NCBI RefSeq assembly: GCF_003334385.1
Contig: NZ_QOWN01000002.1
Source of the DNA: Escherichia coli
Lineage (GTDB): Bacteria; Pseudomonadota; Gammaproteobacteria; Enterobacterales; Enterobacteriaceae
Length of the DNA: 64,000 bases
Strand: one strand, 5' to 3'
The position numbers were made by a program, and so were the translations under genes. Below the pieces are notes generated by a model. That model was not told the origin of the DNA. It was given only the letters and a program-made list of their open reading frames with translations, and did no database searches. Below, in pieces: positions 59,772 to 59,905 of this stretch (the first letter of the stretch is position 1; the number at the start of each line of letters is the position of its first letter).

Positions 59772-59801
59772 AAAAAAGGGGCTGTTAGCCCCTTTTTAAA
59801 A
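59772..59801 (-). terminator. Terminator-like hairpin between infB and rbfA
   Basis: aaaaggggc-tgtta-gcccctttt flanked by A/T runs, ~15 nt upstream of the rbfA start on the transcript. Coordinates approximate. Confidence 0.5.
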
Positions 59802-59829
59802 TTAATTTCAGGTGGAAGGGCTGTTCACG

Positions 59830-59905
59830 TTGACCTGATAAGACGCGCCAGCGTCACATCAGGCAATCCATGCCGGATGCAGCGTAAACGCCTTATCCCG
59901 CATGG
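59830..59905. repeat. REP-like element in the infB-rbfA intergenic region
   Basis: gacctgataagacgcgccagcgtcacatcaggca and gccggatgcagcgtaaacgccttatcccgcatgg. Coordinates approximate. Confidence 0.6.

Follow-up and report, generated by a model that had tools for sequence, protein, structure and literature searches.

A conserved hairpin with the build of an intrinsic terminator, and a REP pair beside it, between infB and rbfA in Escherichia coli

The spacer between infB and rbfA in Escherichia coli carries a short-stem hairpin that runs directly into a series of U residues, and upstream of it in the mRNA lies a pair of REP elements. The combined evidence from the sequence, from comparison among relatives, and from published transcript maps is probably best explained by a leaky intrinsic terminator that acts together with a stabilizer of the upstream mRNA. 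Much of this is familiar territory. Terminator t3, the BIME upstream of rbfA, and the mapped RNA 3′ ends at this site are all already in print, and the element is a known and ordinary one. The sole increment of the present analysis is comparative: throughout the Enterobacterales and Vibrionaceae, the hairpin is conserved and holds its position whether or not REPs accompany it.

Layout of the infB-rbfA junction

The DNA analyzed is a 64-kb stretch, hereafter called the window, that is E. coli K-12-like, and its infB-rbfA junction is base-for-base identical to that of MG1655 (alignment A1). Window positions are converted to NC_000913.3 coordinates with an offset of +3,253,423, which was verified on the same alignment. 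The 261 bases around the junction are present in every complete E. coli genome searched (5,426 of 5,426), with at least 80% query coverage in 5,423 of them. The operon is encoded on the minus strand, with infB at 59919-62591, rbfA at 59354-59755, and truB at 58410-59354, followed by rpsO and pnp. The features of the junction are as follows, given in the order in which they occur in the mRNA.

59919..59921, minus strand: infB (IF2) stop codon UAA; the open reading frame, 59919..62591 (minus strand), is identical to MG1655 infB, 3313342..3316014
59868..59905, minus strand: REP 1, CCAUGCGGGAUAAGGCGUUUACGCUGCAUCCGGCAUGG, a folded stem-loop whose stem begins 13 nt past the infB stop; 93% matches at 14065-14094 and 43634-43662
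59830..59864, minus strand: REP 2, GCCUGAUGUGACGCUGGCGCGUCUUAUCAGGUCAA, a folded stem-loop with one mismatch to the core GCCKGATGCGRCGY; 91% match to 43576-43607
59832..59902, minus strand: the two REPs as a BIME matching Rfam naRNA4 (RF02564), 68.1 bits compared to a gathering score of 59.5, E = 6.5e-11; the plus strand scores 27 bits
59798..59829, minus strand: linker from REP 2 to the hairpin, ACGUGAACAGCCCUUCCACCUGAAAUUAAUUUU, AT-rich toward its 3′ end; kept in E. albertii and Pseudocitrobacter, which have the same REP pair
59773..59797, minus strand: terminator hairpin AAAAAGGGGC-UAACA-GCCCCUUUUU, a perfect 11-bp stem with its GC core at 59792-59778 and an A5:U5 extension as its base
59772..59777, minus strand: U6 run after the GC core, read from the sequence; T-tail score 4.5
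59767..59771, minus strand: mapped RNA 3′ ends, with 59771 = 3313194, 59768 = 3313191, and 59767 = 3313190 (Liu et al. 2023, Tables S3, S4, and S6)
59764..59768, minus strand: rbfA Shine-Dalgarno sequence AGGAG, 3 nt past the U-run and 8 nt ahead of the AUG
59753..59755, minus strand: rbfA start codon AUG; MG1655 rbfA is 3312777..3313178

Read along the mRNA, the 163-nt spacer region therefore runs from the infB UAA through 13 nt, REP 1, 3 nt, REP 2, the linker, the hairpin, U6, GUC, AGGAG, and 8 nt to the AUG. An initial annotation of this DNA had described a hairpin with a 9-bp stem lying approximately 15 nt upstream of the rbfA start and followed by a REP-like element. The hairpin is indeed present, and its distance was given correctly, with the last U (59772) located 16 nt before the AUG (59755-59753); the stem was underestimated and is actually 10-11 bp long. 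Recognition of a REP was also correct, except that there are two of them in opposite orientation, at 59905-59868 and 59864-59830. The order that had been proposed is that of the plus strand and must be reversed for the minus-strand mRNA, in which the hairpin follows the REPs. The suggested closeness of the hairpin to the rbfA ribosome-binding site holds as well, with 3 nt between the U-run and AGGAG, and no occlusion of the Shine-Dalgarno sequence is predicted.

Neither MG1655 nor the other RefSeq records inspected have a REP or terminator feature annotated at the junction. A consensus scan revealed no internal promoter in the infB-rbfA spacer, and its single match within 57500-64000 is located upstream of rpsO. 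Across most of alignment A2, a Shine-Dalgarno sequence of the form (C/T)TGGAG or CAGGAG is conserved. Full-length Rfam matches farther along the locus are those expected for it, namely the S15 leader at 58205-58319 (minus strand) and, at 57804-57975 (plus strand), the SraG sRNA, which is encoded opposite the rpsO-pnp spacer as an antisense RNA.

One strain carries an interrupted version of this layout. In E. coli 22AH104 (NZ_AP043972.1), an IS4-family transposase gene resides inside the infB-rbfA hairpin, and the alignment breaks after GGCCC (positions ~776-806 of that locus). This insertion is a natural disruption that parts rbfA-truB from the operon promoters, and it suggests that the junction can be broken without lethality.

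The hairpin and its resemblance to intrinsic terminators

When written through the end of its U-run, the hairpin reads AAAAAGGGGC-UAACA-GCCCCUUUUUU (59797-59772, minus strand), and the corresponding plus-strand letters at 59773-59797 are AAAAAGGGGCTGTTAGCCCCTTTTT. The portion AAAAAGGGGC-UAACA-GCCCC spans 59797-59778, and UUUUUU comes next at 59777-59772. The stem is perfect and can be drawn either with 10 bp and a 5-nt loop or with 11 bp and a 3-nt loop. On the sense (minus) strand, its predicted folding energy is -15.2 kcal/mol, with the GC core by itself contributing -9.5, and the predicted pairing probability is ~0.97. Among E. coli strains, the loop varies between TAACA and TATGG while the G/C stem is kept.

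Perfect stems of at least 9 bp with loops of 3-8 nt are more common in the window than expected (nine, compared to 1.6 +/- 1.3 in dinucleotide shuffles), and most of these nine resemble terminators. Taken alone, the 41-nt hairpin segment stands out only modestly once its skewed composition is allowed for (z = -2.9), with 3 of 200 shuffles folding equally well, and the reality of the hairpin is settled instead by its conservation, which is described below. The infB-rbfA spacer as a whole (186 nt folded) is clearly structured, with z = -5.5.

Other stems in the window deserve a brief mention. Three direct copies of a perfect terminator-like hairpin, AAAAACCCGCCGAAGCGGGTTTTT, are arrayed ~113 nt apart at 14227-14254, 14342-14365, and 14455-14478, and these adjoin rnpB (14488-14864, minus strand), identified by Rfam as the RNase P RNA. 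The longest perfect stem is a 14-bp palindrome with a 4-nt center, AGGGCGTTATCTGACCTGTCAGATAACGCCCT, at 34594-34625. Lacking a T-run, this palindrome resembles a binding site for a protein more than it does a terminator.

On the sense strand, GGGGC-UAACA-GCCCC followed by U6 has the stem-loop plus U-run that defines an intrinsic terminator, and it is the only canonical hairpin with a U-run in the 163-nt spacer. Candidates were scored with a discriminant of the d'Aubenton-Carafa type, based on the GC core stem and the tail. With this discriminant, whose values can be trusted only as a relative ranking, the hairpin scores +26 in the sense direction and +14 in the antisense direction, compared to +27 for the pnp terminator, +34 for rpsO t1, and -23 for the REPs alone in the same window. 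The discriminant is of the kind described by d'Aubenton-Carafa and colleagues in 1990. A consensus terminator scan did not list the hairpin, presumably because pairing between the A-run and the T-run makes the stem longer at the expense of the T tail, and rescoring on GC core plus tail recovers it. Besides naRNA4, a permissive Rfam search of the spacer yielded only subthreshold matches, at 59770-59807, to the terminator ends of sRNA families. Furthermore, a transcript that ends at the U-run is predicted to fold into three terminal stem-loops, which are formed by the two REPs and the terminator.

Published transcripts and mapped RNA 3′ ends

The operon terminator called t3 is reportedly also described in work by Sands and colleagues from 1988. 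In the passages of Brandi et al. (2019; PMC6511841) that describe it, t3 is placed upstream of rbfA with reference to Plumbridge and Springer (1983), a 4.8-kb RNA ends at t3 without rbfA, and a 6.7-kb RNA reads through and contains rbfA. Distances in MG1655 fit these transcript sizes, since the rimP-leader region (~3,318,150-3,318,200) lies ~5.0 kb from 3,313,194 and ~6.8 kb from the rpsO terminator. The mRNA levels reported in the same study follow the order nusA > infB > rimP > rbfA, with infB approximately twofold above rbfA (Brandi et al. 2019; PMC6511841). The mapped element at the junction is the documented t3, an identification that is based on its position and on the lack of any other candidate, as those passages give no coordinates for t3. 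The initial annotation proposed that the element acts as a partial terminator or affects RNA stability, leaving rbfA-truB less expressed than nusA-infB, and this literature, including the twofold difference between infB and rbfA mRNA, supports that proposal.

More precise positions come from SEnd-seq data on wild-type cells and on rne, pnp, rnb, and rnr mutants, which also define a transcription unit of 6,806 nt at 3311370-3318175 (Liu et al. 2023; PMC10667835). A 3′ end at MG1655 3313191, classified there as a "3′ rne end," has a proportion of ends of 0.19 in wild-type cells and 0 in the rne mutant (log2FC 6.8, FDR 7e-6). Trimming by RNase II is recorded with a start at 3313190 and a stop at 3313194 (0.147 vs 0.021), under the label "rbfA<->infB" on the minus strand (PMC10667835). 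Nibbling by RNase II at the ends of stem-loops typically covers 3-5 nt, and the 4-nt offset between start and stop at this site conforms (PMC10667835). The mapped ends fall 7-11 nt past the G/C stem, and the trimmed end is on the G after U6. Thus, RNAs in vivo have 3′ ends within or just past the U-run, as is expected for an intrinsic terminator, at 3313190, 3313191, and 3313194.

According to the published SEnd-seq tables, approximately 15%-19% of the transcripts that reach the hairpin end there, which is a minority. Mapping of 3′ ends had been put forward in the initial annotation as the decisive check, and ends do appear at the hairpin in the SEnd-seq data (19% at 3313191 and 14.7% at 3313194), although the Term-seq data of Adams 2021 are without a call. 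No minus-strand 3′ end between 3311708 and 3318213 appears in this curated list, whose entries do include the pnp terminator, the S15 leader, and metY. The absence is genuine, subject to the threshold applied in that list. Therefore, the hairpin site is not a dominant or strong end.

The same ends might be generated by processing rather than by termination. RNA polymerase would read through, RNase E would cut the AU-rich single strand past the hairpin, and exonucleases would then trim back to the stem, such that the hairpin and the REPs serve as a protective 3′ cap for nusA-infB. The downstream rbfA-truB fragment, cut in or near its Shine-Dalgarno sequence, would be inactivated and decay faster, an arrangement termed "selective RNA processing and stabilisation." RNase E reportedly prefers RN|WUU, a preference credited to Chao and colleagues in 2017, and the sequence GA|AUU at 59764-59760, which is 4-5 nt beyond the mapped ends, suits it. 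Stabilization of upstream mRNAs by REPs has been documented, and the loss of the 3313191 end in the rne mutant, paired with RNase II trimming, fits processing at least as well as it fits termination (PMC10667835). However, the observed ends follow A59768 or G59767 and precede G-G or G-A, not W-U-U, and the hairpin has the full canonical build of a terminator. Among the listed rows of Table S3, two name rbfA, and each of these records a 3′ end rather than a 5′ end (PMC10667835). Moreover, many entries in the "3′ rne end" list are 3′-UTR ends whose genes have ordinary terminators, tsx and tig among them (PMC10667835), so the dependence on RNase E may be indirect. Processing is a less likely but live alternative origin of these ends, and termination is ranked ahead of it. 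The two readings are compatible and have the same outcome for gene expression.

The REP pair

Each of the two REPs differs by one mismatch from the REP core, GCCKGATGCGRCGY, and each has copies with 90%-93% identity elsewhere in the window. Their opposite orientation is evident from the core matches, which are on the plus strand for REP 1 (59872-59885) and on the minus strand for REP 2 (59864-59851). By comparison with the REP consensus types, REP 1 is presumably of the Y type and REP 2 of the Z2 type, which would make the pair a BIME-2. The pair folds at -42.9 kcal/mol (z = -6.5). What the naRNA4 match can be taken to demonstrate is homology of the REP pair only.

Additional REPs are distributed in the window at 28063-28360 (several), at 14065-14094, and at 43576-43662, the last being a pair with 90%-93% identity to each infB-rbfA REP. 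There are at least two alleles of the infB-rbfA REP pair in E. coli, with 507 genomes at 80%-90% identity and 217 at 90%-95% (strains compared: Nord1, GPEC1035, and 22AH104).

REPs within ~15 nt of a stop codon are said to lower translation of the upstream gene, an observation attributed to Liang and Deutscher in 2015, and REP 1, at 13 nt past the infB stop, is a candidate for such an effect. The naRNA4 family was built on REP325, which is both a partial terminator and a stabilizer of the upstream mRNA, and which cuts expression of the downstream gene yjdN ~10-fold in a partly Rho-dependent manner. In tandem gene pairs with REPs, expression is biased to the upstream gene. The element upstream of rbfA has previously been placed in the largest cluster of enterobacterial candidate attenuators, where it was recognized as a BIME (Naville and Gautheret 2010; PMC2965389).

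It might be proposed that the REP pair is the main attenuator, acting by RNA polymerase pausing or by partly Rho-dependent termination past the infB stop, with the hairpin as a minor backup. The effect of REP325 on yjdN offers a precedent, the BIME upstream of rbfA is among the published candidates in a study that cites BIME-associated attenuation (Naville and Gautheret 2010; PMC2965389), and the pair exceeds the naRNA4 gathering score. However, the mapped 3′ ends are at the hairpin and not at the REPs, which are without a U-tail and rank far lower by discriminant (-23). The Rho-termination table of Adams 2021 (file 2) holds no coordinate starting with 3313. In addition, most relatives have the hairpin without REPs, so the hairpin is the conserved element. 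A leading role for the REPs is for these reasons rather improbable.

Conservation across the Enterobacterales and Vibrionaceae

A set of 120 species-representative loci was gathered with a degenerate pattern for the N terminus of RbfA, and infB was found directly upstream of rbfA in 118 of these 120 sampled genomes. The spacers fall into classes of 63-75 nt in many Enterobacterales, 100-330 nt when an insertion is present, and 85-172 nt in the Vibrionaceae. The spacers of 0-21 nt in the Betaproteobacteria and in some marine gammaproteobacteria leave no room for a hairpin.

With both MAFFT and Infernal, stems of the E. coli type came out shifted by two columns, and G-run/C-run stems slid by 1-2 columns still pair at 70%-73% versus 78%. 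Because of this register problem, an alignment-free test was used instead, applied to 88 unique junctions from the Enterobacterales and Vibrionaceae in which the spacer measures 60 nt or more. In 81 of the 88, a hairpin with a folding energy of -12 kcal/mol or lower stops 15-40 nt short of the AUG, compared to 11% of dinucleotide shuffles, and in the remaining 7 the hairpin is farther upstream, several times due to an insertion. There are 44 distinct 5′ arms among the conserved hairpins, and the distance from the end of the stem to the AUG, most often 17-24 nt, is nearly constant over the two orders.

The stem sequences differ by group. Escherichia, Citrobacter, Enterobacter, and Kluyvera have GGGGC/GCCCC followed by U6; Serratia, Dickeya, and Pectobacterium have GGGGGGCC/GCCCCCC; Pantoea, Erwinia, and Tatumella have GGGAGGCC/GGCCUCCC; and Vibrio has UGGGGGGC.../...CCCCCCA. 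A covariance model built from Enterobacterales junctions and run over 0.9 Mb matched each Enterobacterales locus exactly once, and every match was at the junction. Pair 24-37 of the stem is G-C in 38 sequences, A-U in 12, and unpaired in 0, a covariation test that is limited by the G-run/C-run stems and by the register problem. A good U-run, and with it a positive discriminant, occurs mostly in many vibrios and in the Escherichia-Citrobacter-Enterobacter group. The hairpins retained by Serratia, Dickeya, Pectobacterium, Pantoea, and Erwinia have a poor U-tail and a discriminant that is mostly 0 or below. Selection may also act on a function other than termination.

In species whose spacer measures 63-75 nt, the hairpin occurs without a REP. 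The classical REP pair between the infB stop and the hairpin was found in E. coli, E. albertii, Pseudocitrobacter, and one Citrobacter. Because the hairpin is kept with or without REPs across the junctions, it is the older, ancestral element of this spacer, into which the REPs came later.

In Enterobacter, Kluyvera, other Citrobacter, and Escherichia sp. ESNIH1 (five loci), the slot taken by the REPs in E. coli holds a different palindrome of the form GCCGGG-T/A-...-CCCGGC. Extragenic palindromes appear to have landed repeatedly at this position upstream of the hairpin, which different repeat families have colonized independently. Erwinia psidii has a 332-nt spacer with a large insertion between the hairpin and rbfA, flanked by the inverted repeat GGCTGTATCCCAC...GTGGGATACAGCC, and this insertion looks like a miniature transposable element.

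The near-constant distance between stem and AUG across two orders, along with the mere 3 nt between the U-run and AGGAG, might be taken as a sign that rbfA translation is the main target of the hairpin, which would mask the ribosome-binding site or provide a stabilizing 5′ stem-loop or a standby platform. Predicted accessibility argues otherwise. In the predicted fold, the hairpin is not paired to the Shine-Dalgarno sequence, whose probability of being unpaired is predicted to be 0.44 with the hairpin and 0.56 when it is disrupted, and the initiation window from -20 to +13 is predicted to be slightly more open with the hairpin (0.56 vs 0.45). Furthermore, a compact layout of terminator, Shine-Dalgarno sequence, and AUG, with insertions only on the upstream side, also yields constant spacing. 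A primarily translational role is therefore very unlikely. Occlusion of the ribosome-binding site by the hairpin was considered separately and is not supported by the predicted accessibility.

The retention of the hairpin even where the U-tail is weak also bears on whether the terminator is controlled by a factor. NusA might tune it, thereby autoregulating the distal half of the operon, and antiterminators of the CspA family might relieve it in the cold, leading to induction of rbfA and pnp. CspA, CspE, and CspC have been reported to be antiterminators (Bae et al. 2000, as cited in Brandi et al. 2019; PMC6511841), and the hairpin has the same build, GGGC-loop-GCCC plus a U-run, as the attenuator in the rimP leader of this operon. 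However, northern patterns before and after cold shock were very similar and were judged "not consistent" with antitermination (Brandi et al. 2019; PMC6511841), and with the Rfam rimP leader model the junction reaches no more than 14.4 bits (E = 5.4), whereas a true leader scores 102 bits. A literature search found no direct test of NusA or Csp proteins at this hairpin. Overall, control by these factors is unlikely. It is less likely still that the hairpin ~20 nt before rbfA is a conserved cis-regulatory RNA, as yet without an Rfam family, that attenuates transcription in response to a factor, be it NusA, NusG, or a Csp protein. If this were true, the hairpin would constitute a second control point of the operon that encodes NusA, and it would set transcription into rbfA, truB, rpsO, and pnp.

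Interpretation

The explanation that we favor, with good though incomplete confidence, remains the combination of a terminator and a stabilizer. An old, conserved, short-stem intrinsic terminator, consisting of a 5-bp G/C core, an A:U extension, and U6, and ending 16 nt before the rbfA AUG, would serve as t3 of the metY-rimP-nusA-infB-rbfA-truB(-rpsO-pnp) unit. It would halt a minority of RNA polymerases, perhaps a fifth to a half, such that most transcripts read through, with rbfA and truB receiving less transcription than nusA and infB do. The primary 3′ end would arise from termination and not from cleavage. The ended transcripts are then nibbled by RNase II for 4 nt, until the enzyme halts at the base of the stem.

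The younger, inverted REP pair would have been inserted between the infB stop codon and this terminator. By analogy with other REPs, it would add stabilization or attenuation at infB-rbfA. The three stable stem-loops at the 3′ end should block 3′-to-5′ exonucleases and stabilize the nusA-infB mRNA, and they fit the two roles published for REPs, namely partial termination and stabilization of upstream mRNA.

Understood in this manner, the junction can serve as a textbook case of unequal products from one operon, in which every transcript yields NusA and IF2, whereas RbfA and TruB come from the read-through fraction. The natural variants with and without REPs allow the effect of REPs on operon polarity to be separated from that of the terminator. 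In addition, the conserved hairpin could be curated as an RNA family.

Comparison with known systems

The gammaproteobacterial rimP leader (RF01770) offers one parallel, in that it also has a short stem made only of G/C pairs (GGGC...GCCC) and a U-run located tens of nucleotides before the next start codon in the operon for NusA. That leader differs in having two hairpins and conserved flanks, and it is not homologous to the infB-rbfA hairpin. Membership of the junction in this family was rejected, as its 14.4 bits (E = 5.4) compare to a gathering score of 47 and to 102 bits for the MG1655 leader used as a positive control.

The REPs resemble other REP/BIME elements in that a pair of imperfect palindromes, oppositely oriented, occupies the 3′ UTR separating tandem genes, a setting shared with REP325 and malE-malF. 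REP325 consists of six repeats, whereas infB-rbfA has a single pair and then a separate canonical terminator. As for a function as a nucleoid-associated RNA, the infB-rbfA copy is related to naRNA4 as a REP pair, and this function is disputed even for REP325, which according to a 2026 preprint causes no measurable chromosome compaction.

A closer likeness is to the partial terminators and 3′ stabilizers found within operons, which share a stem-loop between cistrons, unequal mRNA levels, and an RNase II nibble of 3-5 nt. The infB-rbfA element is of the same kind and is listed in the tables of Liu et al. (2023). Closest of all is t3 of the E. coli metY-rimP-nusA-infB operon, which lies at the same locus in the same organism, shows no difference, and is the element itself.
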